A stretch of 37,196 nucleotides of DNA from a phage. The translations under genes were made by a program, and so were the position numbers. The DNA is taken from the sequence record PZ445539.1; one strand, given 5' to 3'. The notes below the pieces were generated by a model, which saw only the letters and a list, made by a program, of their open reading frames with translations, ran no database searches and was not told the DNA's origin. Position 1 is the stretch's first letter, and each line of letters starts with the position of its first letter. Positions 2,790 through 32,950 of this stretch are shown here, piece after piece.

Positions 2790-2794
2790 TTTTT

Positions 2795-3484
2795 ATGGGG
2801 GCCGTAATGCCTGAAATCGTAAAAACGCTGTCTTTCGACGAGACAGAAATCAAATTCACCGGTGACGGGAAACAGGGGATTTTTGAAGGCTACGCCTCTG
2901 TTTTTAATAACACCGATTCCGATGGCGACATCATTCTGCCAGGGGCGTTTAAAAATGCACTGGCGAACCAGACCCGCAAAGTGGCGATGTTCTTCAACCA
3001 CAAGACGTGGGAGCTACCGGTTGGTAAATGGGACAGCCTGGCCGAAGACGAGAAAGGTCTGTATGTGCGCGGTCAGCTGACCCCAGGACACAGCGGCGCC
3101 ACCGACCTGAAAGCGGCAATGCAGCACGGTACCGTTGAGGGGATGTCGGTTGGCTTTTCTGTTGCGAAAGACGATTACAGCATCACTACCACCGGCCGCA
3201 TTTTTAAGAATATTCAGGCCCTGCGTGAAATCAGCGTTTGTACCTTCCCGGCCAACGAACAGGCTGGCATTGCAGCCATGAAAAGTGTCGATGGCATTGA
3301 AACGATCCGTGATGTGGAGAACTGGCTGAGGGATTCAGTCGGGCTCACCAAATCACAGGCAGTTGGGCTAATAGCCCGGTTTAAGTCAGCGATTCGGAGC
3401 GAGTCCGAGGGCGACGGAAACGAAGCACAAATCAACGCTCTGCTTCAGAGCATCAAATCTTTCCCTTCTAATTTAGGTAATTAA
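2795..3484 (+). CDS. prohead maturation protease (HK97 gp4-like)
   Basis: 229-aa ORF between portal and major capsid genes; alternative start at 2807 has a better GGGGG ribosome-binding site. Confidence 0.8.
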   Translation: MGAVMPEIVKTLSFDETEIKFTGDGKQGIFEGYASVFNNTDSDGDIILPGAFKNALANQTRKVAMFFNHKTWELPVGKWDSLAEDEKGLYVRGQLTPGHSGATDLKAAMQHGTVEGMSVGFSVAKDDYSITTTGRIFKNIQALREISVCTFPANEQAGIAAMKSVDGIETIRDVENWLRDSVGLTKSQAVGLIARFKSAIRSESEGDGNEAQINALLQSIKSFPSNLGN

Positions 3485-3486
3485 TT

Positions 3487-4644
3487 ATGTCTGAACTCGC
3501 TCTCATTCAAAAAGCTATCGAAGAGTCCCAGCAGAAAATGTCCCAGCTTTTCGATGCACAGAAAGCAGAAATCGAAAGCACGGGTAAGGTATCCAAACAG
3601 CTGCAGTCGGACCTTGCGAAAGTACAGGAAGAACTGACCAAATCCGGCACTCGCCTCTTCGATCTTGAGCAGAAACTGGCCTCCGGTGCCGAAAATCCGG
3701 GTGAGAAGAAATCCTTCTCCGAACGCGCAGCGGAAGAACTGCAGAAGTCCTGGAACGGCAGCAAAGGCAGCTTCGAGGCGAAAACCTTTAACAAGTCGCT
3801 GGGCAGTGATTCTGATTCTGCAGGCAGCCTGATCCAGCCGATGCAGGTTCCAGGCATCATCATGCCGGGCCTGCGCCGTCTGACCATTCGTGATCTGCTG
3901 GCGCAGGGCCGAATTTCCAGTAACTCCCTGGAATACGTCCGTGAAGAGGTGTTTACCAATAACGCCGATGTGGTGGCCGAGAAAGCGCTGAAACCTGAAT
4001 CGGATATTACCTTCAGCAAGCAAACCGCGAACGTGAAGACCATCGCCCACTGGGTGCAGGCGTCACGTCAGGTTATGGACGATGCGCCAATGCTGCAGTC
4101 ATACGTCAACAACCGCCTCATGTACGGTCTGGCGCTGAAGGAAGAAGGCCAGCTGCTGAACGGCGACGGTACCGGGGATAACCTGGAAGGTCTGAACAAA
4201 GTGGCAACCGCCTACGACACCTCGCTGAATGCCACTGGCGACACCCGCGCTGACATTATCGCTCACGCCATTTATCAGGTGACCGAATCTGAGTTTAGCG
4301 CTTCCGGTATCGTCCTGAACCCGCGCGACTGGCACAACATTGCGCTGCTGAAAGACAATGAAGGCCGTTATATTTTCGGCGGCCCTCAGGCGTTTACCAG
4401 CAACATCATGTGGGGGCTGCCGGTAGTTCCGACTAAGGCACAGGCCGCCGGTACCTTTACGGTGGGCGGTTTCGATATGGCCTCTCAGGTGTGGGATCGC
4501 ATGGATGCCACCGTGGAAGTCAGCCGTGAAGACCGCGATAACTTCGTGAAAAACATGCTGACCATCCTGTGCGAAGAGCGCCTGGCGCTGGCGCACTATC
4601 GCCCGACGGCAATCATCAAGGGCAGTTTCTCTTCTGGCTCATGA
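3487..4644 (+). CDS. major capsid protein, HK97 fold, with N-terminal delta (scaffold) domain
   Basis: 385-aa ORF; N-terminus MSELALIQKAIEESQQKM... and overall sequence closely match my recollection of HK97 gp5; coiled-coil N-terminal region. Confidence 0.93.
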   Translation: MSELALIQKAIEESQQKMSQLFDAQKAEIESTGKVSKQLQSDLAKVQEELTKSGTRLFDLEQKLASGAENPGEKKSFSERAAEELQKSWNGSKGSFEAKTFNKSLGSDSDSAGSLIQPMQVPGIIMPGLRRLTIRDLLAQGRISSNSLEYVREEVFTNNADVVAEKALKPESDITFSKQTANVKTIAHWVQASRQVMDDAPMLQSYVNNRLMYGLALKEEGQLLNGDGTGDNLEGLNKVATAYDTSLNATGDTRADIIAHAIYQVTESEFSASGIVLNPRDWHNIALLKDNEGRYIFGGPQAFTSNIMWGLPVVPTKAQAAGTFTVGGFDMASQVWDRMDATVEVSREDRDNFVKNMLTILCEERLALAHYRPTAIIKGSFSSGS

Positions 4645-4650
4645 TGGAGG

Positions 4651-4672
4651 GGGCGGGGTGACCCGCCCTTTT
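4651..4672 (+). terminator. intrinsic terminator-like hairpin after the capsid gene
   Basis: GGGCGGG-gtga-CCCGCCC stem-loop followed by TTTT. Confidence 0.55.
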
Positions 4673-4677
4673 AACGT

Positions 4678-5004
4678 ATGGCGATAGATGTTCTGGATGT
4701 AATTGGCCTCAGCCTGTTTAAGCAGCAGATTGAATTTGAGGAAGACGACAGGGACGAGCTGATCACCCTGTACGCTCAGGCAGCTTTTGACTACTGCATA
4801 AGCTGGTGCGATGAACCAGCTTGGAAAGTTGCAGCTGATATTCCTGCAGCCGTTAAGGGCGCCGTTCTCCTTGTCTTTGCTGACATGTTTGAACACCGCA
4901 CCGCGCAAAGCGAAGTACAGCTATATGAGAACGCTGCAGCAGAACGCATGATGTTCATCCATCGCAACTGGCGCGGTAAATCTGAACCTGAGGAGGGCTC
5001 CTGA
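4678..5004 (+). CDS. head-tail connector protein (gp6-like DNA-packaging/connector)
   Basis: 108-aa acidic ORF immediately after the capsid gene; position-based call. Confidence 0.55.
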   Translation: MAIDVLDVIGLSLFKQQIEFEEDDRDELITLYAQAAFDYCISWCDEPAWKVAADIPAAVKGAVLLVFADMFEHRTAQSEVQLYENAAAERMMFIHRNWRGKSEPEEGS

Positions 5005-5342
5005 TGGAACCTGGACGATTCAGGCACAGGGTAAAAATTCTCACCTTCACGACTTCGCGCGATCCATCTGGTCAGCCGGTTGAATCGTGGAGTGGTGGCA
5101 ACCCGGTCCCGGCTGAGGTGAAGGGGATCAGTGGCAGAGAGCAGATGTCTGGTGGCGCGGAAACGGCGCAGGCAACCATTCGCGTCTGGATGCGCTTCAG
5201 GGCTGAGCTGAACGCCTCTTCTCGTCTGGAAGTGCTTAGCGGCCCGTATAAAGGTCAGGTGCTAAATATCATCGGTCCTCCTGTAGCAAATGCGACCGGC
5301 AGTCGTCTGGAAATTCTTTGCAAAACGGGAGCTGAAAAATGA
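5004..5342 (+). CDS. head closure / head-tail adaptor protein
   Basis: 112-aa ORF with start overlapping the previous stop; position in head-tail joining block. Confidence 0.55.
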   Translation: MEPGRFRHRVKILTFTTSRDPSGQPVESWSGGNPVPAEVKGISGREQMSGGAETAQATIRVWMRFRAELNASSRLEVLSGPYKGQVLNIIGPPVANATGSRLEILCKTGAEK

Positions 5343-5788
5343 TTGAGACGAGCCTCGATTTTTCCGGGTTAAATGACATTGCAAAGGATCTGGAAGCGCT
5401 TAGCCGCGCTGAAAACAACAAGGTTCTGCGTGATGCCACGCGCGCCGGTGCCGAAGTGCTTAAGGAAGAAGTGATCGCCCGCGCTCCGGTGCGTACCGGG
5501 AAACTGAAAAAAAACGTGGTGGTGGTTACCCAAAAAAGCCGACGCCGCGGGGAAATTTCTTCTGGTGTCCACATTCGTGGTGTTAACCCGCGCACCGGGA
5601 ACAGCGATAACACGATGAAGGCGAATAACCCGAGAAATGCCTTTTACTGGCGATTCGTTGAAATTGGAACCGTTAACATGCCACCGCACCCTTTCATTCG
5701 TCCCGCGTTCGATGTTCGCCAGGAGCAGGCGACGGAGGTTGCGATCAGGCGCATGAACCAGGCCATTGACGAGGCATTAAGCAAATGA
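5339..5788 (+). CDS. HK97 gp10-like tail component
   Basis: 149-aa ORF, overlapping start and stop codons with neighbours; position-based call. Confidence 0.5.
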   Translation: MIETSLDFSGLNDIAKDLEALSRAENNKVLRDATRAGAEVLKEEVIARAPVRTGKLKKNVVVVTQKSRRRGEISSGVHIRGVNPRTGNSDNTMKANNPRNAFYWRFVEIGTVNMPPHPFIRPAFDVRQEQATEVAIRRMNQAIDEALSK

Positions 5789-6132
5789 CGGAAGAAGATC
5801 TCTATCCTCTGCTGGCGCCGCTGGCCGGAGGGCAGGTTTATCCCTACGTTGCGCCGCTCGGCAGTGACGGGAAGCCTTCAGTCTCGCCGCCCTGGGTAAT
5901 TTTCTCGATTATTACCGACGTGGCCGCAGACGTTCTTTGCGGTCAGGCTGAATCTGCCGTTTCTGTGCAGGTTGATGTCTATTCCAGCACCATCGCTGAA
6001 GCGCGCACGATCAGGAATATGGCGCTTGATGCTCTGCAGGTGCTGAAGCCGGAAAGCATTGTGAAAACGCCGGGCTATGAGCCTGATTTGCGCTATCACC
6101 GGGCAACGCTCGAATTTCAGGTAACCGTTTAA
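5785..6132 (+). CDS. tail completion / tail terminator protein
   Basis: 115-aa ORF immediately upstream of the major tail gene. Confidence 0.45.
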   Translation: MTEEDLYPLLAPLAGGQVYPYVAPLGSDGKPSVSPPWVIFSIITDVAADVLCGQAESAVSVQVDVYSSTIAEARTIRNMALDALQVLKPESIVKTPGYEPDLRYHRATLEFQVTV

Positions 6133-6148
6133 CCTTACCCACCATAAC

Positions 6149-6173
6149 AGACCGCCCCGGCGGTCTTTTTTTA
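6149..6173 (+). terminator. terminator-like hairpin upstream of major tail gene
   Basis: AGACCGC-cccg-GCGGTCT stem-loop followed by TTTTTTT. Confidence 0.55.
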
Positions 6174-6185
6174 TCTGGAGAAACC

Positions 6186-6656
6186 ATGACCAGTAAGTAT
6201 GAAGTTACAAAGGGGATGACCTTTGCCGTCTCCGACGCACCGGTAACCGCTGAGGATTTTAACGCCTCAGGTTTCCCGGGGGCTGGCATTACCTGGCTGG
6301 AAGCGGCCTGTGCAACAAAGGAGATCACCTTCACCGGCGGGCAGAAAGGGGATATCGACGTAACCACGCTTTGCTCAACTGAACAGGAGCAAACCAACGG
6401 CCTCGCCGCGCCAGCTGAAATGAGCATTACCCGTAACTGGGTTGGCGATGAAGCAGCACAGGAGGCACTGCAGACCGCTTACGAAAATGACGAACTGCGC
6501 GCGCTGCGTGTGGTGTTCCCGTCTGGTAATGGTTTCTACGTGCTGGTGGAGGTACGCCAGAGCTCATGGTCTGCTGCAACATCTTCCGTTGTTGGCGCTA
6601 CCTATTCTCTGCGTGTACGCGGCAAACCTAAACGCATCTACGCGTCTGGTTCCTGA
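6186..6656 (+). CDS. major tail (tube) protein
   Basis: 156-aa ORF with GGAG ribosome-binding site, bracketed by hairpins, directly upstream of the G/GT chaperone pair. Confidence 0.7.
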   Translation: MTSKYEVTKGMTFAVSDAPVTAEDFNASGFPGAGITWLEAACATKEITFTGGQKGDIDVTTLCSTEQEQTNGLAAPAEMSITRNWVGDEAAQEALQTAYENDELRALRVVFPSGNGFYVLVEVRQSSWSAATSSVVGATYSLRVRGKPKRIYASGS

Positions 6657-6677
6657 GCGGCTTCGGCCGCTTTTTTT
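6656..6677 (+). terminator. terminator-like hairpin after major tail gene
   Basis: AGCGGC-ttcg-GCCGCT (UUCG tetraloop) followed by TTTTTTT. Confidence 0.6.
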
Positions 6678-6710
6678 ATCCCTTCGATCATGTAACAAGA
6701 GAAAAATGAA

Positions 6711-7112
6711 ATGCCGCAAAAAACATCACAGAATTCATTACGCAACGTGGCGCTTACAGCATCGAAAGCCTATCGCACCAAAGAAGGTATCACGGTCCCT
6801 GAATGGGATGGCGCAAAGGTAACGCTGCGTGAACCCTCTGGCGATGCCTGGGTGAAATTCCGGGAGATCGTTAATCCCCAGCTCGCCGAGGGCGAAGAGG
6901 CACCGACGCTGACGGAGGCGGAAAAGTTTCTGCGTAACAAAGAGGCTGATGTGGTTCTGTTTATTGACGTTCTGCTGGATGAAAACGGCGAGCGAGTATT
7001 CAGCGATGAGGATCAGGAGCAGGTATCTAAAATCTATGGTCCTGTGCACTCCCGCCTGCTGGCTCAGGCCCTCAACCTCGGAATGAGCCAGGAAGAAGCG
7101 GGAAAGCCGTAA
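6711..7112 (+). CDS. tail assembly chaperone (lambda gpG-like)
   Basis: 133-aa acidic ORF ending GCG GGA AAG CCG TAA; contains slippery heptamer G GGA AAG at 7100-7106. Confidence 0.75.
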   Translation: MPQKTSQNSLRNVALTASKAYRTKEGITVPEWDGAKVTLREPSGDAWVKFREIVNPQLAEGEEAPTLTEAEKFLRNKEADVVLFIDVLLDENGERVFSDEDQEQVSKIYGPVHSRLLAQALNLGMSQEEAGKP

Positions 7113-7399
7113 AGCAGCCGCTGACCTTTTTCCTGATGTCATTGGCGCTACGGATGGGGCGCACTCTTCACGAACTGCGCCAGACCATGACCGCCAGCGA
7201 GCTCAAAATGTGGATCGAGTTCGACCGCATCAGTCCGATTGGTGACTGGCGCGCCGATGCACAGGCGGCGCAGATCTCCGTTGCAATGCTGAACTCTCAG
7301 GGTGGGAAATTCACCATTCCTGACGTGATGCTGAAGTGGGGAGAGCAGGAAGAGGTCGCAGAAGTCTCAGAACTCGAAAATTGGATATCCAGTCTTTGA
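7100..7399 (+). CDS. tail assembly protein T-like extension, expressed as G-T fusion by programmed -1 frameshift
   Basis: The -1 frame is open from 7100 through ORF 7136..7399 with no stop; heptamer identical to lambda G-T slip site; directly upstream of tape measure gene. Confidence 0.65.
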   Translation, partial: GKAVKQPLTFFLMSLALRMGRTLHELRQTMTASELKMWIEFDRISPIGDWRADAQAAQISVAMLNSQGGKFTIPDVMLKWGEQEEVAEVSELENWISSL

Positions 7400-7400
7400 C

Positions 7401-7422
7401 GCCCGCGGCTGCGGGCTTTTTT
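7401..7422 (+). terminator. terminator-like hairpin before tape measure gene
   Basis: GCCCGC-ggct-GCGGGC followed by TTTTTT. Confidence 0.55.
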
Positions 7423-7433
7423 ATGGGTGAAAT

Positions 7434-10400
7434 ATGGCAACGCTGCGCGAGCTAATCATCAAAATTTCGGCGAACTCATCTTCTTTCCAGTCTGAGATCG
7501 CCAGAGCGTCCCGCATGGGAACCGATTACTACCGCACTATGGAACAGGGCGGGAAAAAAGCTGCAGCGGCCACGCGTGAAACTCAGCGCTCTTTGGCTGA
7601 CCTGAACTCTCAGCTTGCAACAGTACGTTCCTCTGCTGCCGGGCTTGCCGGTGCGTGGGCTGGTGCATTTGCCACGCATCAGCTGATTCAGTTTGCCGAC
7701 ACGTGGAACCAGTTGAATGGGCGTCTTCGCCTTGCGTCCTCTTCCAGTGAGGATTACGTGCAATCCCAGCGTGTACTGATGGAGATTAGCCAGCGGACCG
7801 GAACATCCCTTGAGGCAAACAGCAACCTGTACAGCAGAATTGCGCAGTCCCTGCGTGATGCCGGTTACGCTTCTGCTGACGTCGCAAAAGTTACGGAAAC
7901 CGTAGCAACCTCACTGAAGCTGTCTGGCGCCAGTACCGAAGAGGCGAGTTCTGTTATCACCCAGCTTAGCCAGGCACTTGGCTCAGGCGTTTTGCGAGGC
8001 GAAGAATTTAACTCCATCATGGAGAACGGCGGCCGCCTGGCGAAACTGCTGGCTGATGGGCTGGGTACCAGTGTTGGTGGCCTGCGAAATATGGCCAACA
8101 ACGGCGAGCTGACGACCAACAAGATCGTCCCGCTGCTGACCAACGTTGAGATCCTCCGTAAAGAATTCGACACCCTTCCTGCTTCCATCAGCGGATCTGC
8201 ACAGAAAGTGCAAAACGCCTTCCTTGCATGGGTTGGCGGGGCGAACGATGCGGTCGGCGCATCCTCAACGCTTTCCGGCGTGCTGGATGGTCTTGCGAAT
8301 AACATCGATGATTTGGCAAATACAGCCGGTATTCTGGTTGGTGTTGGCCTCGCCCGTTATTTCGGCAACATGGTTGGCAGCGTCGCTCAGTCAACCCGGG
8401 CAGTGCTCGCTAATACGGCCGCCGAGGTCGCACTGGCTCAGGCTCAGGTTCGTGGCGCTCAGGTTAGCGTTGCTGCTGGTCGCCAGGCTGTTTATCGCGC
8501 TCAACAGGCGCGCGCAGCGGCGACGAGTATTGAGGCTCAGATTGTCGCTGAGCGTAATCTTGCTGCTGCTCAGGCATCACTGAATACTGCGCTTGCTGGC
8601 AGGACTTCGGCCGTTAATAACCTCACCAATACAGCCTCGGTGATGTCCCGCCTGGGTAGTGGCGTTCTTGGCATTCTCGGTGGCTGGCCTGGAGTGATTA
8701 TCGGTGCTGGCGCTGCGATGTATGGCCTTTATCAACATACCCAGCAGGTGCACCGTGAGGCGGTAGGTTTTGCCAACAACCTTGACGAGATCAACACCAA
8801 GCTCCAGCAGATGTCGGTGCTTGGCCTGCGTTCGACCGCGGCTGATGCCCGTACATCTTTGCAGGCGCAAAAACAGGACCTGGCCGACCTCGACTCTCAG
8901 ATCGCGAAGGTGAAAGACAGCCTTAAGGCGGTTGACCAAATCCAGCAGGACTATAACCGCCATCCGACGCTGACCCTGATCAATACTTTCATGGACCAGG
9001 CCGACATCACGGCCAAAAATATCGAGCTGACCGATAAGCTGAACCAGCTGGAGTACCAGCGCGAACAGGCAGCCTCAAAAGTCGAGCAAACGCAGAAGCT
9101 GGTAAACCAGGCCAGCGATCTGGCCACGCAAAAGGCTATCGAACAGGCTGGCGCCGTCTCTATCCTGAAAGGTGCGTATGACCTGCTTAACCGCTCAATG
9201 TCAGCGACCGCTGGCGCCAAGCCGCCGCAATATGCCGGGCCCGTCGTTTCACTGGCGAACGCAACGCCTCAACAGCAAACCGCACTGGAGCGCTCACGCC
9301 GAGATAACGAGCTGGCCAGCCTAAGCGGTTTAGAGAAACTTCATCAGCAGCACGTGTATGAAGCAGAAGACCTGAAGCTGACGGGAGCACTTTACACCCA
9401 GTACATTTACAACAAGGATCAGGCAGCCAAAAAAGATGCAGCGGCTGCGGAGGCAAAAAAAACCTCTACCGCCGCCTCGAAAGCACAGAGTAAAGCCGAG
9501 CGTGAAGCGGCCAGCACCGCCGAACAGTATTCCCGGAAAATGGCCGATCTGAGTGTGGCTATCGACGTGCAACGCGTCAGGGCGACGGAAGGTGAAAAAG
9601 CCTCGGAGCTTTACGCTGCATCGCACCAGGCAGGCACTAAATGGACCGACGAGCAGCGCAAGGCGATCCAGGCATCATCAGCAGAGCTGGCAAAATGGAC
9701 GCAAAAAGCCGACGAGAACGTGCGCAAGCAGCGCGAACAAGCTGATGCCCTGAAGGATTTAACTGAAGCGGCCCGAAAGTTCAGGGATGAGGCGACGCTG
9801 ACAACCGAAACCGCAGGCATGAGTGATCGCCAGCGCAGCCGGTTCGACGAGACGCAACAGATCGACCGTGTTTTTGCTAAAGCAGGTGGCGACAAAAGCA
9901 CCCAGGCTGTGATAGCTCGAAGCGAAGCCCTTGATGCTCTGGATAAGAAATACAAGGCTATTGCAGCAGCTGAAGCGGATTGGATGTCCGGTGTATCACG
10001 CGGCTATGCCAACTGGTTTGATGAAATCAGTAACGTATCCGGAACGGTTTCTGACGGGGTGAAAACCACACTCGACAGCGCGTTTGGTAACGTCACCTCA
10101 ATGCTCGAAGGCAATAAAGTTAGCTGGAAATCGTGGGGTATTTCTGTCCTGCAGATCATTGAAAAAGTGGCGCTGCAGATGGCGGTGGTCAGCGCGATGG
10201 GTGGTGCCTCTTCCGGTTCTGGCATTTTTGGCTCACTCATCGGCAGTGTGGGCAGTTTCTTCGGGGGCGGGGCGGGAGCATCAGCCAGCACCGGTACAGC
10301 GGTTTCCAGTTACGGCTCGAGCTTCCAGTTTAATGCCAAAGGCGGCGTTTATGACTCTCCATCCCTGAGCGCTTTCAGTAATGGGATCGTCAGAAACCCA

Positions 10401-10721
10401 ACAATGTTCGCTTTCGCAAAAGGCGGGGCCGGAATCATGGGCGAGGCTGGCCCGGAGGCAATCATGCCGCTGACCCGCGCGCCGGATGGTTCTCTCGGTG
10501 TTCGTGCGGTCGGAGGTGGCGGCGGTCAGCCCGTATCGTCGGCGCCACAGGTTTATATCACTATCGATGGCAACGGCAACACCTCAACGCAAACCTCACC
10601 AGGCCTTGAGCAATTTGGTGCCGAAGTCGGGAAATTTGTCGATCAGCGATATAAGCAGAATGTAATGCGTGATATCCGCCCCGGCGGTGACATCTGGAAC
10701 GCAATGAAAGGAACCCGATAA
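7434..10721 (+). CDS. tail tape measure protein
   Basis: 1095-aa ORF, Ala/Gln-rich coiled-coil character, Gly-rich C-terminal region; follows G/GT pair. Confidence 0.9.
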   Translation: MATLRELIIKISANSSSFQSEIARASRMGTDYYRTMEQGGKKAAAATRETQRSLADLNSQLATVRSSAAGLAGAWAGAFATHQLIQFADTWNQLNGRLRLASSSSEDYVQSQRVLMEISQRTGTSLEANSNLYSRIAQSLRDAGYASADVAKVTETVATSLKLSGASTEEASSVITQLSQALGSGVLRGEEFNSIMENGGRLAKLLADGLGTSVGGLRNMANNGELTTNKIVPLLTNVEILRKEFDTLPASISGSAQKVQNAFLAWVGGANDAVGASSTLSGVLDGLANNIDDLANTAGILVGVGLARYFGNMVGSVAQSTRAVLANTAAEVALAQAQVRGAQVSVAAGRQAVYRAQQARAAATSIEAQIVAERNLAAAQASLNTALAGRTSAVNNLTNTASVMSRLGSGVLGILGGWPGVIIGAGAAMYGLYQHTQQVHREAVGFANNLDEINTKLQQMSVLGLRSTAADARTSLQAQKQDLADLDSQIAKVKDSLKAVDQIQQDYNRHPTLTLINTFMDQADITAKNIELTDKLNQLEYQREQAASKVEQTQKLVNQASDLATQKAIEQAGAVSILKGAYDLLNRSMSATAGAKPPQYAGPVVSLANATPQQQTALERSRRDNELASLSGLEKLHQQHVYEAEDLKLTGALYTQYIYNKDQAAKKDAAAAEAKKTSTAASKAQSKAEREAASTAEQYSRKMADLSVAIDVQRVRATEGEKASELYAASHQAGTKWTDEQRKAIQASSAELAKWTQKADENVRKQREQADALKDLTEAARKFRDEATLTTETAGMSDRQRSRFDETQQIDRVFAKAGGDKSTQAVIARSEALDALDKKYKAIAAAEADWMSGVSRGYANWFDEISNVSGTVSDGVKTTLDSAFGNVTSMLEGNKVSWKSWGISVLQIIEKVALQMAVVSAMGGASSGSGIFGSLIGSVGSFFGGGAGASASTGTAVSSYGSSFQFNAKGGVYDSPSLSAFSNGIVRNPTMFAFAKGGAGIMGEAGPEAIMPLTRAPDGSLGVRAVGGGGGQPVSSAPQVYITIDGNGNTSTQTSPGLEQFGAEVGKFVDQRYKQNVMRDIRPGGDIWNAMKGTR

Positions 10722-10723
10722 CT

Positions 10724-11062
10724 ATGGCCATTGAAACTTTCACCTGGTGCCCACGAATTAACGCGGAGGCTGATACAAATTTCCGCGTCAGGAAAGCACA
10801 GTTTGGTGATGGATATGAGCAGGTTTCAGGGGATGGATTGAACACCAGAACCCAGCAATGGACGCTCAACTTCACTGGCAACGAAACCTACATTTCTGCC
10901 ATTAAATCTTTTCTCGACAGGCATGAAGGAACGAAAGCCTTTCAATGGAAGCCACCGCTCGAACCTTTGGGTTTGTATCGTTGCGAAACGTATAAACCCA
11001 CCGGGCTTGGCGCGGGGAAATTCAACCTTGAAGCAACATTCATCCAGGCATTTAAACCATGA
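10724..11062 (+). CDS. minor tail protein (lambda gpM-like)
   Basis: 112-aa ORF directly after tape measure; size and order as in lambda M. Confidence 0.75.
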   Translation: MAIETFTWCPRINAEADTNFRVRKAQFGDGYEQVSGDGLNTRTQQWTLNFTGNETYISAIKSFLDRHEGTKAFQWKPPLEPLGLYRCETYKPTGLGAGKFNLEATFIQAFKP

Positions 11063-11817
11063 GCTTAAACGCAGATTATCAAAAGCTGGAATCCGGAAAC
11101 GATGTTCGTCTGATTGAGGTGGACGGTTCTTCCTTTGGGCTAACGGACGTTCTCCGCTTTCACAATTACAGCATTCCCCACACAGAAGCGGAAATCATCG
11201 CCGCTGGTGGGGATGAGTCCAAGCTTCCGGCGAAACCAATCTGGTGGCAGGGAAATGAATATGCCGCCTGGCCATATCAACTGGAAGGTCTGGAGAAATC
11301 AACCAGTGGGAGCAATGCAACGCCATCCCTGACGGTTGCGAACATCGAAAGCTCCATTTCAGCCCTGTGTCTTGCGTATGACGATCTGCTGCAGGCGAAA
11401 GTCACTATTCACGACACAAAAGAGAAATATCTCGATGCCAGAAATTTCGCAGACGGCAACCCCACAGCAGACCCGACTCAGGAAAAGCTGCAGGTCTGGT
11501 ATATCGACGGGAAAACGGGCGAGCTTGCCGGCGAAACCGTTGAATTTGTTCTGTCCAGCCCGATGGATCTGCAGGGGCAAATGATCCCGACGCGACAGCT
11601 TCATTCCCTGTGTACCTGGTGCATCCGGAATAAATATCGTACCGGCGACGGCTGCGACTATGCCGGCACCCGCTATTTCGAAAAAAACAACAACCCGGTA
11701 AGCGATCCGTCGCTGGATGAATGCAACGGCACGCTGACGGCCTGCAAACTCCGATTCGGCGAAAATAACGAACTCTCGTTTGGTGGCTTCCCGGGCACGT
11801 CTTTGATCAGGAGTTGA
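11059..11817 (+). CDS. minor tail protein (lambda gpL-like)
   Basis: 252-aa ORF with C-terminal Cys cluster (CTWC...C...C) as in gpL. Confidence 0.75.
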   Translation: MSLNADYQKLESGNDVRLIEVDGSSFGLTDVLRFHNYSIPHTEAEIIAAGGDESKLPAKPIWWQGNEYAAWPYQLEGLEKSTSGSNATPSLTVANIESSISALCLAYDDLLQAKVTIHDTKEKYLDARNFADGNPTADPTQEKLQVWYIDGKTGELAGETVEFVLSSPMDLQGQMIPTRQLHSLCTWCIRNKYRTGDGCDYAGTRYFEKNNNPVSDPSLDECNGTLTACKLRFGENNELSFGGFPGTSLIRS

Positions 11818-11818
11818 T

Positions 11819-12529
11819 ATGCGTCAGAAAACCATCGATGCGATTATGGCGCATGCTGCAGCTGAATATCCTCGCGAGTGTTGCGGCGTGGTAGCGCAGA
11901 AAAGCCGTGTTGAACGTTATTTCCCGTGCCGGAATCTTGCCGCGGCGCCGGAGGACAATTTTGTCCTTTGCCCCGAAGACTATACAACTGCTGAGGACTG
12001 GGGAACGGTGATCGCCATCGTTCACAGTCATCCTGACGCCACGACACAACCGAGCGAATTGGATAAAGCGCAATGCGATGCAACGCTTTTGCCGTGGCAC
12101 ATCGTGAGCTGGCCTGAGGGGGATTTACGCACCATCCAGCCGCGTGGGGAGCTGCCGCTGCTGGAGCGTCCGTTTGTGCTTGGACACTTCGACTGCTGGG
12201 GGCTGGTAATGAGCTATTTCCGGCAAACGCATGGTATCGAGCTCCACGATTACCGGGTGGATTATCCCTGGTGGGAAAACGACTATCCGGACAACTTCTA
12301 TCAGGATTGCTGGTATGAGTGCGGATTCCGTGAATTCGACGGGCCACCGAAACCCGGCGATATGGTGATTATGCAGGTCCAGGCCGATAAGTGGAATCAC
12401 GCGGGAATTCTGCTGGAGGGAAATATGCTGCTGCACCACCTGTACGGACATCTGAGCCAGCGCGTGCCGTATGGTGGCTACTGGCAGGAAAGGACGATGA
12501 AGGTTCTACGATATAAGGACCTGTGCTAA
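11819..12529 (+). CDS. tail tip assembly protein (lambda gpK-like; JAMM/MPN plus NlpC/P60-type domains)
   Basis: 236-aa ORF with JAMM-like motif AIVHSHPD and C-terminal Cys/His region. Confidence 0.75.
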   Translation: MRQKTIDAIMAHAAAEYPRECCGVVAQKSRVERYFPCRNLAAAPEDNFVLCPEDYTTAEDWGTVIAIVHSHPDATTQPSELDKAQCDATLLPWHIVSWPEGDLRTIQPRGELPLLERPFVLGHFDCWGLVMSYFRQTHGIELHDYRVDYPWWENDYPDNFYQDCWYECGFREFDGPPKPGDMVIMQVQADKWNHAGILLEGNMLLHHLYGHLSQRVPYGGYWQERTMKVLRYKDLC

Positions 12530-12560
12530 CCTTTTGTAAAACAAAAAAGGGGTTAGGGAT

Positions 12561-12908
12561 ATGAGGAAATTTCTTTCGATATTGGCGTGTAGCCTGATTA
12601 TTGTTGGTTGCTCACCTTCGGAAAAGGATTTTATTGACATGGGGGAATCCTTAGTTAAAGACACCCTCAAAGATCCTGATAGCGCTAAGTTTGAATCATT
12701 TTTCCGTGATTTCGGAGAAAATACTGGATATGTTTGCGGTTATGTGAATGCTAAAAATTCATACGGCGCATATACGGGTAAAAAACCATATTATGTGCGG
12801 ATTGAGGTCAAAGATGGAAAGGTCAATGATCATGGACCAATCATCATTATTAATGACCAAGACCAAAAGAAAATTGATTCATATGAGTCAATCTGTCAAA
12901 AGGACTGA
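12561..12908 (+). CDS. lipoprotein, unknown function (moron)
   Basis: Signal peptide with lipobox LIIVGC; strong ribosome-binding site; AT-rich codon usage unlike flanking tail genes. Confidence 0.7.
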   Translation: MRKFLSILACSLIIVGCSPSEKDFIDMGESLVKDTLKDPDSAKFESFFRDFGENTGYVCGYVNAKNSYGAYTGKKPYYVRIEVKDGKVNDHGPIIIINDQDQKKIDSYESICQKD

Positions 12909-12914
12909 TGTGCG

Positions 12915-13250
12915 ATGAAAAAGATTATCCTCCCAATTTTTATCTTTCTGCTGATGGGGTGTTCTGTTTCCTCACTGGAAGAACAAAAACCTATTCTATC
13001 AGAGCATTCAACAAAAACTGTTGAGGAAGTTAACCGTTGCCTTGCTCCTAAATGGGTGGAACTACGATCTTCAAGCTCCAGCATACCCACTGAGTCAGGA
13101 TACAAAATCACAGCATCTGACGATATATTCGGTGCTCTTTCAGTAGTGAATATCGATAAATCAGCGACAGGCGGAAGCGATATAAAGGTTTATGCCGTCG
13201 CGAAAGGTTGGAACGACCACTGGGCTACGGCCGCCAGATCATGTCTTTGA
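12915..13250 (+). CDS. lipoprotein, unknown function (moron)
   Basis: Signal peptide with lipobox LLMGC; AT-rich; followed by terminator. Confidence 0.7.
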   Translation: MKKIILPIFIFLLMGCSVSSLEEQKPILSEHSTKTVEEVNRCLAPKWVELRSSSSSIPTESGYKITASDDIFGALSVVNIDKSATGGSDIKVYAVAKGWNDHWATAARSCL

Positions 13251-13269
13251 AAAAACATAAATAATCCAA

Positions 13270-13291
13270 GCCACCTTCGGGTGGCTTTTTT
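13270..13291 (+). terminator. intrinsic terminator after lipoprotein moron
   Basis: GCCACC-ttcg-GGTGGC hairpin followed by TTTTTT. Confidence 0.65.
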
Positions 13292-13306
13292 GTATGGAGA
13301 ATAAAA

Positions 13307-13906
13307 ATGCCAGAGGTCATGACCCGAATTGAACTCGGCGGTGTTTTGGGTAAAACCTACGGAAAGGTTCACCATCGATTAATACGCACAACCGCTGAGG
13401 CCATCAACTCTCTTACGAAAACTATAAACGGGCTGGAGAAATTCCTGATCACCAGCAAAGCAAGGGGCCTGACTTACGCCGTTTTTAAAGATAAAAAAAA
13501 TATCGGAAAGGATGATTTTGGTTTTCCGGTAACCGGTGAGGTTATTCGAATTGTCCCGGTAGTAATCGGAAGTAAAAAAGCCGGTGTATTACAGACAATT
13601 CTTGGCGCCGTGCTCGTCGTTGTTGGGGTAGCCATTGGCTATTTCTCAGGTGGCACTCTATCAGCGGTGGGGTACGGGGCTGCGAAATTCGGTGCAGCCA
13701 TGATGCTGGGAGGTGTTGTCCAAATGCTATCTCCTCAACCTGCAGGTCTGGCCAGCAAACAAAGCGCTGACAACCGTGCATCATACGCATTCGGTGGTGT
13801 AACAAACACCGCGGCGCAAGGCTACCCGGTACCGCTCCTTTATGGCCGTCGGCGAATAGGCGGAGCGATTATTTCTGCCGGAATTTATGTCGAAGATCAG
13901 CAGTAG
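13307..13906 (+). CDS. tail assembly protein (lambda gpI-like)
   Basis: 199-aa ORF with hydrophobic Gly-rich central segment; position between K-like and J-like genes. Confidence 0.75.
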   Translation: MPEVMTRIELGGVLGKTYGKVHHRLIRTTAEAINSLTKTINGLEKFLITSKARGLTYAVFKDKKNIGKDDFGFPVTGEVIRIVPVVIGSKKAGVLQTILGAVLVVVGVAIGYFSGGTLSAVGYGAAKFGAAMMLGGVVQMLSPQPAGLASKQSADNRASYAFGGVTNTAAQGYPVPLLYGRRRIGGAIISAGIYVEDQQ

Positions 13907-13925
13907 ATAACTAACCTTTTTTCTG

Positions 13926-13948
13926 GCCACCTTCGGGTGGCTTTTTTT
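13926..13948 (+). terminator. second copy of the same hairpin, before J-like gene
   Basis: Identical GCCACC-ttcg-GGTGGC stem-loop followed by TTTTTTT. Confidence 0.55.
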
Positions 13949-13959
13949 ATGGGCGCAAT

Positions 13960-16900
13960 ATGGCTACAGATAAAGTGTTAAAGGGCCGCAAGGGCGGCAG
14001 CTCCAGTTCACGAACTCCTACCGAACAGCCTGATGATCTGCAATCTGTAGCGAAGGCAAAAATCCTCGTTGCGCTTGGCGAAGGGGAGTTTGCAGGTCAG
14101 CTAACCGGCAAAGATATCTACCTGGACGGAACAGCCCTGGAGAATGCTGACGGCTCCCAAAACTTCAGCGGCGTAACGTGGGAGTTTCGCGCGGGAACGC
14201 AGGCGCAAAAATATATTCAGGGTATTCCCGGTACCGAAAACGAAATCAGCGTAGGAACTGAGGTATCAAGCGCTACAGCATGGACGCGCACCTTTACCAA
14301 TACGCAGCTTTCAGCAGTTCGCCTACGTCTGAAATGGCCCTCGCTTTTCAAACAGGAGGACGACGGCGATCTGGTGGGTTACTCGGTCAATTATGCGATT
14401 GACCTGCAGACGGACGGCGGCACATGGCAGACGGTACTCAATACCAGCGTGACCGGCAAAACGACGTCTGGTTATGAGCGCAGCCACCGTATTGATTTAC
14501 CGCAGGCTGGCAGCACCTGGACAATACGCCTGCGTAAGATTACCTCTGACGCCAACAGCGCGAAGATCGGCGACACGATGACGCTGCAGAGCTTCACCGA
14601 GGTGATTGACGCCAAACTGCGCTACCCGAACACCGCGCTGCTCTACATCGAATTTGACTCAAGCCAGTTCAACGGCTCTATTCCTCAAATTTCATGCGAA
14701 CCGCGCGGCCGCGTTATCCGCGTTCCAGATACCTACGACCCTGAAACTCGCACTTATAGCGGTACATGGACCGGTGCGTTTAAGTGGGCATGGACGGATA
14801 ACCCTGCGTGGATTTTTTACGACCTGGTTGTTTCTGACCGGTTCGGCCTCGGGCACCGTTTGACCGCTGCAAATATTGATAAATGGACGCTTTATCAGGT
14901 TGCTCAGTATTGTGATCAGATGGTACCAGACGGCAAAGGGGGCAACGGTACCGAACCACGTTATACCTGCAACGTGTACATTCAGGACCGGAACGACGCC
15001 TACACAGTCCTGCGTGATTTTGCCGCTATCTTCCGTGGCATGACCTACTGGGGCGGGGATCAGATTGTGGCCCTGGCTGACATGCCGCGCGATGTTGATT
15101 ACAGCTACACGCGCGCTAACGTTGTTGGCGGTCGCTTCACCTATTCGAGCAGCACCACGAAAAGCCGCTACACCACAGCGCTGGTTTCATGGTCAGACCC
15201 TGGTAACGCTTATGCCGACGCGATGGAGCCGGTTTTTGAGCAGGCACTGGTGGCGCGATACGGCTTCAATCAGCTGGAAATGACAGCCATCGGCTGCACC
15301 AGGCAGTCAGAAGCGAACCGAAAGGGGCGCTGGGGTATTCTCACCAACAACAAGGATCGCGTTGTTTCGTTTGATGTCGGGCTGGACGGCAACATTCCGC
15401 AGCCGGGCTACATCATCGCCGTGGCAGACGAGCTGCTATCCGGAAAGGTTATGGGCGGCCGCATCAGCGCCGTTAACGGTCGCGTTATCAAACTTGACCG
15501 CGTGGCAGATGCAGCAGCGGGTGATCGCCTTATTCTCAACTTACCATCCGGAGTGTCGCAGAGCAGGACCATTCAGGCCGTAAACGGGGAATCAGTCACA
15601 GTAACCACGGCATACAGTGAGACGCCACAGGCCGAAGCTGTTTGGGTGGTTGAATCTGACGAGCTCTATGCGCAGCAGTATCGTGTTATCAGCGTTTCCG
15701 AAAAGGATGATGGCACGTTCTCGATTACTGGCGCATGGCACGACCCGGATAAATATGCCCGTATCGATACCGGAGCCATTATCGACCAGCGGCCGGTGAG
15801 CGTGATCCCGCCTGGTAACCAGTCGCCGCCTGCGAACATCGTGATCAGCTCGTTTTCCGTGGTTCAGCAGAATATCAGCGTCGAAACGATGCGCGTGAGC
15901 TGGGACCAGGCGCAGAACGCTATCGCCTATGAAGCGCAGTGGCGCCGCAACGACGGGAACTGGGTTAACGTGCCGCGCAGCTCCACAACGTCATTCGACG
16001 TCCCCGGAATTTATGCCGGGCGCTACCTGGTGCGCGTGCGCGCAATCAATGCCGCAGAAATTTCATCCGGATGGGGCTATTCAGAAGAGAAAACGCTGAC
16101 GGGTAAAGTGGGCAATCCACCGAAGCCGGTTGGCTTCATCGCTTCTGAAAATGTGGTATTCGGTATCGAACTAAATTGGGGATTCCCGGCGAATACCGAC
16201 GACACGCTGAAGACGGAAATTCAGTACAGCCTGACCGGTACCGAGGACGATGCGATGCTGCTGGCCGATGTGCCTTACCCTCAGCGTAAATATCAGCAGA
16301 TGGGCCTTAAGGCTGGGCAGATTTTCTGGTACCGCGCGCAGCTGGTGGACCGCAGCGGCAACGAATCCGGGTACACGGAATGGGTGCGAGGACAGGCCAG
16401 CATCGATGTTTCCGATATCACAGATGTGATCCTGGAGGAAATTAAAGACTCCGATACGTTCAAAGACCTGATCGAGAACGCGGTGGACAGCAATGAAAAA
16501 ATTGCTGGCATGGCTGACGACATCAAGCAGGCCAACGATGAACTTGAGCTGCAGGCGCAGGAAATCGCAAAAAACGCTCAGGACATCGGGGAGGTTCAGA
16601 CCAGCGTTAATGAGCTTTCGAGCACCGTTGGTGATGTGTCGTCTTCTCTCTCAGAGCTTGAGCAGACCGTTGCGACGGCTGATACCGCGCTGGGCCAGCG
16701 AATCGACAGCATTAGCGTGTCTATGGACGGCATGACAGGCGGGGTGAAGAACTCAGCCATTGCCATTATCCAAAACGGGCTGGCGCAGGTGGCCACGCGT
16801 AAATCGTTGTCGGCTTCGGTCGCCGGTAACAGTGCGCAGCTGGATCGTATTGATGAGGTAATCGTTAACGAGAAGGAGGCAACGGCGCGCTCTCTGCTGA

Positions 16901-17496
16901 GCCTGCAGACGGACGTCAACGGCAACAAGGCATCCATCAACAGCCTGAATCAGACGTTCTCCGACTATCAGCAGGCTACGGCCACGCAGATAAACGGCAT
17001 TACGGCGACCGTTAACGGGCATACCTCAGCCATCACCACTAACGCTCAGGCGATAGCCAACGTTAATGGCGACCTCAGCGCGATGTACAACATCAAGGTT
17101 GGTGTCTCCAGCAACGGGCAGTATTACGCCGCGGGGATGGGTATCGGCGTGGAGAATACGCCATCCGGCATGCAGTCGCAGGTTATCTTCCTGGCTGACC
17201 GCTTCGCCGTCACCACCGCAGCCGGAAATAGCGTGGCTTTGCCGTTTGTGATCCAGAACGGGCAGACATTCATCCGGGCCAGCTTCATCCAGGACGGCAC
17301 CATTGAGAACGCCAAAATCGGAAACTATATCCAGTCGAATAACTATGTGGCTGGTTCTGCAGGCTGGAAGCTTGATAAGGGAGGGACGTTCGAAATTAAC
17401 GGCGTGGCCGGGGGCGGGAGGATGCTGATATCCAGCACTCTCATTCGCATCTACGACAGCAACAACGTGCTGCGCGTCAGAATGGGGTTATGGTAA
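13960..17496 (+). CDS. central tail fibre / host specificity protein (lambda gpJ-like)
   Basis: 1178-aa ORF at the canonical position after I. Confidence 0.9.
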   Translation: MATDKVLKGRKGGSSSSRTPTEQPDDLQSVAKAKILVALGEGEFAGQLTGKDIYLDGTALENADGSQNFSGVTWEFRAGTQAQKYIQGIPGTENEISVGTEVSSATAWTRTFTNTQLSAVRLRLKWPSLFKQEDDGDLVGYSVNYAIDLQTDGGTWQTVLNTSVTGKTTSGYERSHRIDLPQAGSTWTIRLRKITSDANSAKIGDTMTLQSFTEVIDAKLRYPNTALLYIEFDSSQFNGSIPQISCEPRGRVIRVPDTYDPETRTYSGTWTGAFKWAWTDNPAWIFYDLVVSDRFGLGHRLTAANIDKWTLYQVAQYCDQMVPDGKGGNGTEPRYTCNVYIQDRNDAYTVLRDFAAIFRGMTYWGGDQIVALADMPRDVDYSYTRANVVGGRFTYSSSTTKSRYTTALVSWSDPGNAYADAMEPVFEQALVARYGFNQLEMTAIGCTRQSEANRKGRWGILTNNKDRVVSFDVGLDGNIPQPGYIIAVADELLSGKVMGGRISAVNGRVIKLDRVADAAAGDRLILNLPSGVSQSRTIQAVNGESVTVTTAYSETPQAEAVWVVESDELYAQQYRVISVSEKDDGTFSITGAWHDPDKYARIDTGAIIDQRPVSVIPPGNQSPPANIVISSFSVVQQNISVETMRVSWDQAQNAIAYEAQWRRNDGNWVNVPRSSTTSFDVPGIYAGRYLVRVRAINAAEISSGWGYSEEKTLTGKVGNPPKPVGFIASENVVFGIELNWGFPANTDDTLKTEIQYSLTGTEDDAMLLADVPYPQRKYQQMGLKAGQIFWYRAQLVDRSGNESGYTEWVRGQASIDVSDITDVILEEIKDSDTFKDLIENAVDSNEKIAGMADDIKQANDELELQAQEIAKNAQDIGEVQTSVNELSSTVGDVSSSLSELEQTVATADTALGQRIDSISVSMDGMTGGVKNSAIAIIQNGLAQVATRKSLSASVAGNSAQLDRIDEVIVNEKEATARSLLSLQTDVNGNKASINSLNQTFSDYQQATATQINGITATVNGHTSAITTNAQAIANVNGDLSAMYNIKVGVSSNGQYYAAGMGIGVENTPSGMQSQVIFLADRFAVTTAAGNSVALPFVIQNGQTFIRASFIQDGTIENAKIGNYIQSNNYVAGSAGWKLDKGGTFEINGVAGGGRMLISSTLIRIYDSNNVLRVRMGLW

Positions 17497-17792: not shown

Positions 17793-18430
17793 GCGGATTC
17801 GAAGTTTACAACAGCGACGGAAAACTGCTGGTGGATTCACAAAACAGATCGACCCTGTTTTATGATAAGCGCACGCTGGGTGCCGTCACCGATAAAGGCG
17901 CCTACCGTGTTAACAGCCCGTTTGGTGATGGCAGTACGCTCGGCTTTACGCAGCAGTCATTCTGGAATGACGGCCGTTTAAGGTGGCTGCAGCTGGGCAC
18001 AAACAAATACGGTTTTCCTGGTGCTGATATGCTTGAAGATAATGCTGGTAGCATGATCCGAACTGCGCGAAATATTGGCTTGCAGAGTGGTTATCTCGAT
18101 GTGTTTGATAGTGCCGGCAGCCTTATCTGGAGCGCTGCATCAGCCTCTAAGATGCCGAGAGTCGTTGGGTTCTTTGACGTACCAGCTAACTATGACCTGC
18201 AGAACAATACCTTTTCAGTCAGTTTAAGCTTTAACCCCTGGATTCTGGTAAACAACTGCCCTGGAAACCTTAGCGATGATGGTACGGTTGTCGGGTATTC
18301 AGGTGTGGTGCTCAAATGGACTGGCTCTCAGCTGCAGGGCAGATACATTTCAAATAACCAGCGCAGCTGGAGCCAGACGTTTCAGGGGCGGGGCCTACGA
18401 ATCCCCATCGCTCAGTTTGTTGGAATTTGA
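17789..18430 (+). CDS. hypothetical protein, possibly tail-associated
   Basis: 213-aa ORF with start overlapping the previous stop; no signal peptide. Confidence 0.45.
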   Translation: MSGFEVYNSDGKLLVDSQNRSTLFYDKRTLGAVTDKGAYRVNSPFGDGSTLGFTQQSFWNDGRLRWLQLGTNKYGFPGADMLEDNAGSMIRTARNIGLQSGYLDVFDSAGSLIWSAASASKMPRVVGFFDVPANYDLQNNTFSVSLSFNPWILVNNCPGNLSDDGTVVGYSGVVLKWTGSQLQGRYISNNQRSWSQTFQGRGLRIPIAQFVGI

Positions 18431-18757
18431 CACGGGAGGAACGCGTGGATAATGAGTCGCGATCATATCTTGTTTCACGCCCTTTGCTGAATTAAAGCGA
18501 TAAACCACATCCAGCTTATCCGTTTTTTTATAGCAAATATTACTTAACCGTTTATTAATATGGCGGCTGAATATTCCGTTGCTACTGTCTGAAATAATAT
18601 CCACCTCTCTGGTGGCGCAGTCGATATTTACGTGAATATCACCACCCAGCGATAAACGAGCGGCATCAACCGGGTAATCCATCTGGAATGCGTTATCTGT
18701 GTGTGTGTTCGTACATCCAGCCACCAGAAAAAGCGCTGCAGCAAATAAAAGTTTCAT
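18395..18757 (-). CDS. lipoprotein, unknown function (antisense moron)
   Basis: Signal peptide with classic lipobox LVAGC; AT-rich; convergent with the upstream tail gene. Confidence 0.6.
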   Translation of the reverse strand: MKLLFAAALFLVAGCTNTHTDNAFQMDYPVDAARLSLGGDIHVNIDCATREVDIISDSSNGIFSRHINKRLSNICYKKTDKLDVVYRFNSAKGVKQDMIATHYPRVPPVSNSNKLSDGDS

Positions 18758-23605: not shown

Positions 23606-23963
23606 TGCCGATCTCCGCATTAACTGGTTTCTGCTTTTTGATGAACTCAACCAGCTCAGAAATGAGCTCGTCGATTAATTCCTTCCCGCTATCCGTAAGG
23701 AATTCACCGCTGCCATTAACATCAACAGCGCTGCTGTAAATTCCCTTAATAGCTTTTACACCTTCGACATTCCCGTACTCACTGATCGCAAGCCTTTCGA
23801 ATTTTCGTAATAATGCATCGAGAAGAATCTCTGTTAACTCGACCGTGTTAATACCGCCTTTATCGAACTTAATAACAAGGCAGTTACTGCCAGTTTTACG
23901 CTGGTGGCGTAATAACGCTGCCTTTAAAATTCGGCGGCGATATGTCTCGATTAATTTATCCAT
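23598..23963 (-). CDS. hypothetical protein
   Basis: 121-aa ORF. Confidence 0.5.
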   Translation of the reverse strand: MDKLIETYRRRILKAALLRHQRKTGSNCLVIKFDKGGINTVELTEILLDALLRKFERLAISEYGNVEGVKAIKGIYSSAVDVNGSGEFLTDSGKELIDELISELVEFIKKQKPVNAEIGNG

Positions 23964-24249
23964 TGCGCCGTTCCTCCTCCAAACTCATAACTATTTCCTC
24001 TTCTTTTTCGGTCCATCCATGAATCTCTGCGGCGAGGTCATAAACCAGAGCGCATATCGTTTTTAGTTGGAAGTGGTCCAGCTTTTCGTGATATTCAAAT
24101 AATGTTTGCGATAGACCTGCCAGTTGCTCAGCTTTGATATTCACACCCTGAATATCCTGTCTTTTCAATACGCTCATAATTACCGCCCATATGCTTTTTT
24201 CAGGTAAAGGCGAGCGATTACCTCGTAACCACAAGCCGCATAAAGGCAC
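23956..24249 (-). CDS. hypothetical protein (start uncertain)
   Basis: 97-aa ORF; alternative start at 24177. Confidence 0.4.
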   Translation of the reverse strand: MPLCGLWLRGNRSPLPEKSIWAVIMSVLKRQDIQGVNIKAEQLAGLSQTLFEYHEKLDHFQLKTICALVYDLAAEIHGWTEKEEEIVMSLEEERRNG

Positions 24250-24283
24250 GCTGTTCTGTATGCCGTTTTATCAATGATGAAAG

Positions 24284-32943: not shown

Positions 32944-32950
32944 GGTCACT

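Follow-up and report, generated by a model that had tools for sequence, protein, structure and literature searches.

What are two small lipoprotein genes doing among the tail assembly genes of a temperate phage? The question is raised by the window analysed here, a stretch of 37,196 nucleotides (record PZ445539.1) whose reverse complement matches, at 100% identity, Escherichia phage LMessi (PP925823.1, 37,205 bp), a temperate siphophage of the HK97/HK022-like type with E. coli as its isolation host. Two adjacent genes on the plus strand, called here lipo1 (12561..12908) and lipo2 (12915..13250), encode lipoprotein precursors of 115 and 111 residues that belong to the families PHROG 2320 and PHROG 914, respectively. 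A preliminary description of the locus had taken the pair for a horizontally acquired moron, and had likened its products to the receptor-masking lipoproteins Cor and Llp. Our analysis shows the cassette to be a two-gene accessory element, predicted to encode Sec/signal-peptidase-II lipoproteins, in the K-I slot of an HK97/HK022-type tail operon. Its two genes can occur apart and differ in history, lipo1 being mobile and lipo2 fixed.

Each gene has dozens of homologues, and a ratio of nonsynonymous to synonymous substitution rates (dN/dS) of 0.03-0.15 between close relatives revealed purifying selection on both, indicating that lipo1 and lipo2 are real genes. The lipoboxes reported earlier are present, reading MRKFLSILACSLIIVGC followed by SPS in lipo1 and MKKIILPIFIFLLMGC followed by SVS in lipo2, and both match a pattern of the PROSITE PS51257 type. 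Our criterion for a lipobox was a positively charged N-region, a hydrophobic core and [LVI][ASTVIM][GAS]C within ~35 residues, and both N-termini display the charged start, the hydrophobic core and the lipobox itself (SLIIVGC ahead of SPS; FLLMGC ahead of SVS). The predicted lipid-attachment cysteine is residue 17 of lipo1 (codon 12609-12611) and residue 16 of lipo2 (codon 12960-12962), and is invariant among the close relatives of each. In E. coli, lipoprotein sorting depends on residue +2 after this cysteine, and Ser, rather than Asp, leads to Lol-dependent sorting to the outer membrane. Residue +2 is Ser, not Asp, in both proteins, and by this rule we infer that lipo1 and lipo2 would be anchored in the outer membrane and face the periplasm. 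Each protein also has two conserved cysteines, in the centre and at the C-terminus, which probably pair in a disulfide that stabilises the domain.

AlphaFold2 (AF2) models showed confident, small globular alpha/beta domains for both proteins, with mature parts of ~95-98 residues built of helix and sheet, and their predicted folds, over ~95 residues, are alpha/beta domains of the cystatin/NTF2-like and TBP-like kinds. The TBP-like lipoprotein domains of Flpp3 (DUF3568, a Francisella lipoprotein) and of the BamC N-terminus show a likeness in fold, at a sequence identity of 6-7% and with no profile or PDB sequence match; this fold is generic, and therefore no function can be transferred from it. 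No informative family emerged when both proteins were scanned against Pfam, NCBIfam and PADLOC, or when 56 and 28 of their family members were scanned against Pfam, and among the defence profiles of PADLOC-DB 2.0 no family was found at E values up to 0.1 for either protein. PDB sequence and profile searches stayed at noise level, and a Foldseek search of lipo2 against BFVD returned one significant match, an uncharacterised Pseudomonas phage protein.

The cassette is bordered on the left by K, a tail-tip assembly gene (11819..12529, plus strand; Pfam Prok-JAB, E 1.8e-20, and NLPC_P60, E 7.1e-22; phrog_30, minor tail protein), and on the right by the tail assembly gene I (13307..13906, plus strand; phrog_32, E 4.4e-72, with a weak match to Pfam Lambda_tail_I). 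Insertion between these genes, as first described, agrees with what is found in related phages, where the K-I junction holds accessory cargo and, in HK022, HK106 and phiKO2, has been annotated with morons. In the GenBank record of HK022 the gene at this junction is named 'gp20, moron gene product', and the same gene occupies the place in HK106; the K-I interval of HK97, ~320 nt long, holds no annotated gene and has an annotated terminator at its end. Other cargo or none was seen at this place in HK97, HK022, HK106 and mEp506, and the first three are without both lipo1 and lipo2. The gp20 of HK022 and HK106 shares with the cassette its insertion site and its borders, just past the K stop codon on the left and at the conserved terminator before I on the right, but is an unrelated ORF (open reading frame) of 74 codons, and neither lipo1 nor lipo2 showed similarity to any part of the HK022 and HK106 loci. 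Alignment of the borders showed that loci with different cargo lose similarity a few bases past the K stop codon and regain it at the terminator before I. The K-I accessory slot is thus already known, and LMessi provides a new instance, built from two conserved uncharacterised lipoprotein families.

The strong intrinsic terminator noted earlier after lipo2 was recovered by a terminator scan and by folding (13268..13292, plus strand). Its hairpin, AAGCCACC-UUCG-GGUGGCUU (13268-13287), has an 8-bp stem with five G-C pairs and a UUCG loop, is followed by a T-run, and has a centroid energy of -13.7 kcal/mol (z-score against shuffles, -2.3). Of 48 distinct lipo2-I spacers of related contigs, 47 retain it, with variable loops and occasional compensatory changes in the stem, and HK106, with its unrelated cargo, carries the same hairpin. 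As the same terminator is found at loci with unrelated cargo, it belongs to the junction and was not brought by lipo1 or lipo2. The terminator occurs in two exact 22-nt copies (GCCACCTTCGGGTGGCTTTTTT), one on either side of gene I, at a spacing of 656 nt; the first lies at 13270-13291, and the second, an exact direct repeat on the plus strand (13926..13947) that the terminator scan detected as well, lies in the I-J junction, which is empty here and holds annotated morons in HK022 and HK97.

The lipo2 protein matches phrog_914 (E 2.5e-25, residues 1-111), whose function is given as unknown. An exhaustive profile search of 1.8 billion representative proteins yielded just 75 lipo2 clusters, nearly all of ~110 residues, and in the wider family the lipid-attachment cysteine is kept in at least 90% of members, with cysteines 42 and 110 invariant. 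Among IMG/VR loci, lipo2 lies directly upstream of I in 80 of 80, a context count over relatives closer than the most distant ones (~25-30% identity). Homologues directly upstream of I were also found in Serratia phage OS31 and in prophages of Citrobacter, Atlantibacter, Klebsiella, Kluyvera and Buttiauxella. A close described counterpart is gp19 of phiKO2 ('putative moron gene product'), which is 49% identical over the full length, has the same size and the same position before I, and is followed by a terminator. It differs in that its phage is an N15-like linear-plasmid prophage of Klebsiella, and in standing alone without a lipo1 partner.

To follow the inheritance of lipo2, we compared pairwise identities, using Mantel tests, in 59 loci that contain K, lipo2, I and a complete J. 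The identity of lipo2 correlated with that of K (r 0.77), I (r 0.82) and the N-terminus of J (r 0.75), with a Mantel p of 0.001 in each case, and was not correlated with that of the last 250 residues of J (r = -0.008, p = 0.50). Accordingly, almost half of the pairs with lipo2 proteins at least 95% identical (184 of 376) have J C-termini less than 50% identical. These results show that lipo2 is a long-term fixed resident beside I, inherited with the tail-tip assembly genes.

The history of lipo1 is of another kind. The protein matches phrog_2320 (E 1e-34, residues 1-114), a family of unknown function with no counterpart in Pfam or NCBIfam, and its relatives have in common the lipobox and a core LKDPDSAKF...GYVCGxVNAKNSYGxYTG, with one cysteine invariant and a second, near the C-terminus, almost so. 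Among 80 IMG/VR loci with lipo1, the next recognised gene is the tape-measure gene H in 41, placing lipo1 at the chaperone/tape-measure junction; other placements include that between K and lipo2 (12/80), that between K and I without lipo2 (10/80) and that between H and M (3/80). The gp20 of ES18, annotated 'possible moron; function unknown', is a lipo1 homologue with the same lipobox and core and a terminator of its own, but is longer (151 residues) and lies upstream of the tape-measure gene rather than between K and I. Other members of PHROG 2320 differ from lipo1 in their sites, at the H-M junction or, in the P2-like phage SEN5, between ogr and int, or in an added domain: the homologue in Pseudomonas phage AUS531phi, itself placed at the K-I junction, carries a SPOR domain, which binds peptidoglycan, and this fusion points to cell-wall action. 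A relative in Gordonia phage Zirinka (gp16; L038:2474-2791, reverse strand) lies between the tail chaperone and tape-measure genes, and similar matches were found in ~40 Gordonia phage records.

The space from K to lipo2 serves in its own right as a slot for cargo: it is empty in 35 loci, occupied by lipo1 in 27 and by other genes in 16. The other cargo includes Arc, Bro-N and ORF6N proteins, secreted proteins of 132 and 169 residues, a KilA-N/Bro-like protein and a 66-residue two-helix membrane protein (loci L011-L013, 1400-3900; L014, 3603-4001; L029, 9792-9992; L030, 2974-3782; L034, 9460-9969). In one related locus, L028, the tail module is almost the same (identities of 97% for K, 99% for I and 99-100% for J), yet lipo1 is missing. 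The cassette as a pair had no megablast match in 5,426 complete E. coli genomes, and a sensitive blastn search of E. coli genomes found 20 with either lipo1 or lipo2 and none with both. Taken together, these observations show that lipo1 is mobile cargo, occupying several tail-operon junctions in very distant phages, from those of Enterobacterales to those of Gordonia.

Is the cassette, then, a horizontally acquired moron? The AT-richness that had suggested this was borne out by a windowed G+C content (GC) calculation, in which 12561-13250 has a GC of 0.407 compared to a mean of 0.539 (standard deviation 0.034) for the structural region 1-17496; it is the lowest-GC 690-nt window of that region, and only 2.5% of windows in the whole phage are equally low. 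GC at third codon positions (GC3) is 0.35 in lipo1 and 0.38 in lipo2, compared to 0.63 in K and 0.66 in J. The GC3 of lipo2 is, however, low in all 58 related loci (0.26-0.46, against ~0.62 for K) and at every divergence class from LMessi. Since this low GC3 accompanies co-divergence with the neighbouring genes, the GC discontinuity is not evidence of recent acquisition. Gene I is also low in GC3 (0.46 here, with a mean of 0.43 over the 58 loci). As the trough reaches this essential tail gene, it is not confined to the accessory genes. Low GC is a stable trait of lipo2, and partly of I, and is no mark of recent arrival; more generally, a sharp drop in GC beside a terminator does not prove recent horizontal acquisition. 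A second low-GC stretch, at ~23746-25930, lies outside the structural genes, with 690-nt windows of GC <=0.42 starting at 23746-23747 and 24247-25242.

Morons have been described as extra genes compared to relatives, with a deviant base composition, a terminator of their own, and a promoter of their own that allows expression from the prophage (PMC3594210). The cassette is extra where relatives have nothing or other cargo, its base composition deviates, and a terminator follows it, though as a feature of the junction. A scan of 11800-14000 for the sigma-70 consensus found no sites against 3.1 expected in shuffles, and the best sites of a relaxed scan matched 8 of 12 positions and had poor -10 hexamers, so that no sigma-70 promoter was detected upstream of the cassette (in the K 3' end and the spacer) or within it. 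Reading the sequence gave a sole candidate, a weak extended -10-like element (TGcTAACCT) overlapping the stop codon of K, and an Rfam scan of 12300-14000 showed nothing close to threshold. With no promoter found and a terminator that belongs to the junction, the cassette corresponds to the strict definition of a moron in part. What stands of the original assignment is a pair of AT-rich lipoprotein genes, with a terminator, as cargo of a slot; the long residence of lipo2 and a base composition that does not speak for recent transfer tell against the rest.

What could the two proteins do? Since the tail is assembled in the cytoplasm and the lipoproteins are exported, they are not tail components and must act on the host envelope, where each would expose a domain of ~95 residues to the periplasm. 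The best explanation that we can offer, and one that we hold tentatively, at somewhat less than an even chance, is receptor-independent superinfection exclusion acting in the periplasm. By this account exclusion would take place after adsorption, with the outer-membrane receptor left unmasked, and the proteins would hinder the tail tip or the tape-measure protein of an incoming phage as it crosses the cell wall; transcription would occur at least via read-through from the late tail operon. We propose periplasmic exclusion because of the position of the genes, the independence of lipo2 from the receptor-binding domain, and two precedents. The first is gp15 of HK97, an inner-membrane exclusion protein encoded at the chaperone/tape-measure junction, whose specificity depends on the tail of the incoming phage (PMC3594210). 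It blocks DNA entry in a tail-dependent manner and its junction is the commonest site of lipo1 relatives, but it is no lipoprotein, and the comparison is one of position and description. The second is a lipoprotein, Ltp of Streptococcus phage TP-J34, which acts as an exclusion factor and whose target is reported, in the part of PMC3952083 that cites Bebeacua 2013, to be the tape-measure protein. As far as that account goes, Ltp is membrane-anchored and blocks DNA entry in a tape-measure-dependent manner, and may serve as a model for the mechanism; it differs in that no Pfam family, that of Ltp included, matched lipo1 or lipo2.

Several points weigh against periplasmic exclusion. PHROGs lists PHROG 2320 and PHROG 914 as unknown, and there was no match in Pfam, NCBIfam or PADLOC. 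The failure to find a promoter leaves unsupported the expression in the lysogen that exclusion by a prophage requires. Co-divergence of lipo2 with K and I is expected from linkage alone and says nothing positive on the target, and tail junctions may simply tolerate insertions, which would make position weak functional evidence. The putative disulfide, in turn, is read from cysteine conservation.

The alternative that survives best is lysogenic conversion unrelated to competition among phages, in which lipo1 and lipo2 would be envelope lipoproteins of benefit to the host, acting in serum or stress resistance as lambda Bor does, in cell-wall remodelling or in colonisation. Many tail-region morons act in this way, Bor itself being an outer-membrane lipoprotein encoded by a prophage (PMC3594210). 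The SPOR-domain fusion in one lipo1 homologue and the mostly secreted or membrane nature of the other cargo of the slot are in line with such a role. Both families are, however, essentially limited to tail modules of phages and prophages, and the hosts of lipo1 phages range in lifestyle from enterics to the soil actinomycete Gordonia, which argues for a function centred on the phage rather than on a host niche. The scans gave no promoter for expression from the prophage either. We consider conversion unlikely.

Lower still do we place a role as late lytic helpers, made solely with the tail genes and acting late, either by conditioning the envelope before lysis or by preventing, independently of the receptor, the loss of virions on debris. 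The 31-nt spacer between K and lipo1 (12530..12560, plus strand), which contains a ribosome-binding site (AAGGGG / AGGGA) as read from the sequence, and the 6-nt gap between lipo1 and lipo2, with ribosome-binding sites for both genes, fit co-transcription with K, as does the failure to find a sigma-70 promoter, and lipo2 is inherited as stably as the tail-tip genes around it. A conserved terminator after lipo2 inside a late operon would, however, be most easily explained by the stopping of transcripts that are not anti-terminated. L028 with its near-identical tail does without lipo1, and HK97, HK022 and HK106 have neither gene, so that neither is needed for the lytic cycle. Such a helper role appears quite improbable.

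The analogy to Cor and Llp, drawn in the preliminary description, failed in sequence, fold, linkage and co-occurrence. Cor (of HK022, phi80 and N15) and T5 Llp are outer-membrane lipoproteins that inactivate FhuA, and resemble lipo1 and lipo2 in being phage-encoded, in a predicted site in the inner leaflet of the outer membrane, and in having one conserved cysteine pair. The families are distinct, Cor being phrog_1119. In an hhalign comparison of lipo2 with a 28-member Cor alignment, columns 1-31 aligned alone, comprising the signal peptide and the first 12 mature residues, and in that of lipo1 with Cor only the signal peptide aligned; the mature domains are not homologous. Llp has a small, beta-rich fold (~60 residues when mature), with an N-to-C disulfide needed for FhuA binding, and its gene adjoins that of its receptor-binding protein (bioRxiv 10.64898/2026.03.26.714494). 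The structure predictions suggested at the outset as a check gave, for lipo1 and lipo2, domains of a different and larger kind, with ~95 residues of helix and sheet, and neither Cor nor Llp was among the BFVD matches of lipo2. The position of lipo2 is likewise away from the receptor-binding determinant, whose end of J it does not vary with, and a genuine cor lies downstream of J in at least 13 lipo2 loci.

What enterobacterial lipo2 proteins have in common with Cor is a tether. Among 201 sequences, the motif C-x(2-4)-L-E-x-Q-x-P, which begins at the lipid-attachment cysteine, was carried by 42 of 50 lipo2-like ORFs and by 9 of 13 of the Cor-like type, but by none of the 45 lipo1-like ORFs and none of the 81 other lipobox ORFs. 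It can be extended to C-x(2-4)-L-E-x-Q-x-P-[IV], and is seen in lipo2 at residues 16-31 (12960-13010) and in HK022 Cor (L035:1239-1472). A recent cor/lipo2 chimera was considered and rejected, as the 5' ends of the genes share no notable identity at the DNA level. The tether may be a common docking or sorting element. No cor homologue was found anywhere in the LMessi window, whereas in HK022 a cor gene lies downstream of J. Over its final 328 residues (16510-17493), the J protein of LMessi is ~93% identical to the J proteins of HK022, HK75 and mEpX1.

Receptor masking would have one or both of the lipoproteins bind the outer-membrane receptor that the phage itself uses, for instance FhuA, from the periplasmic side and inactivate it, thus excluding phages that use the same receptor and protecting progeny from debris. 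The cysteine pair and predicted membrane site that Llp and Cor share with both proteins, the tether in lipo2, and the lack of cor in a phage whose J ends so much like that of cor-carrying HK022, would all suit it. We nevertheless regard masking as very unlikely, given the unrelated mature domains, the variation of lipo2 untied to the receptor-binding end of J, its presence together with genuine cor, its distance of ~4 kb from the receptor-binding part of J, whereas llp lies beside its receptor-binding gene and HK022 cor downstream of J, and the occurrence of lipo1 relatives at the P2 ogr-int site and in phages of the actinobacterium Gordonia, which, with the SPOR fusion, argues against a family-wide role at an outer-membrane receptor.

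Returning to periplasmic exclusion, a more far-reaching form of it would make PHROG 914 and PHROG 2320 two families of receptor-independent exclusion lipoproteins directed against the incoming tail tip or tape measure, with lipo2 a module-linked 'self-tail' blocker attached through its Cor-like docking motif to a common outer-membrane partner, and lipo1 a traveller between junctions across phyla. In all its parts together this scheme is speculative, and we think it rather improbable. Accessory genes of tail operons are a main source of prophage exclusion and host-conversion functions, and most are without an assigned role. The two families studied here are compact, confidently modelled and widespread in phage tail modules, and no functional annotation of either was found in Pfam, NCBIfam, PHROGs, PADLOC or the literature searched, which also held nothing specific on LMessi, on phiKO2 gp19 or on lipoproteins at the K-I or related tail junctions. 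The present results are not a surprise, but they narrow the candidates, with lipo2 a stable neighbour of I that is independent of receptor specificity, lipo1 a gene that hops between junctions across phyla, and neither of them Cor/Llp-like, and they make both well-defined and cheap targets for experiment.

The remainder of the tail operon, identified from the ORF list with Pfam and PHROG matches, comprises the tape-measure gene H (7434-10721), M (10724-11062) and L (11059-11817) upstream of K, and J (13960-17496) downstream of I. Two further ORFs of the lipoprotein or lipobox type were observed in the window. The first, a lipoprotein ORF of 120 residues (MKLLFAAALFLVAGC; phrog_25729, of unknown function), lies on the minus strand at 18395-18757, between J and the side tail-fibre gene, in a region that corresponds to where HK022 keeps cor. 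The second, a 73-codon lipobox ORF at 33141-33362 (MYSRLLTICLAMMLIVSC), overlaps the larger ORFs 32876-33220 and 33217-33552, a placement that resembles that of an embedded o-spanin gene of the Rz1 type, for which it is a candidate.

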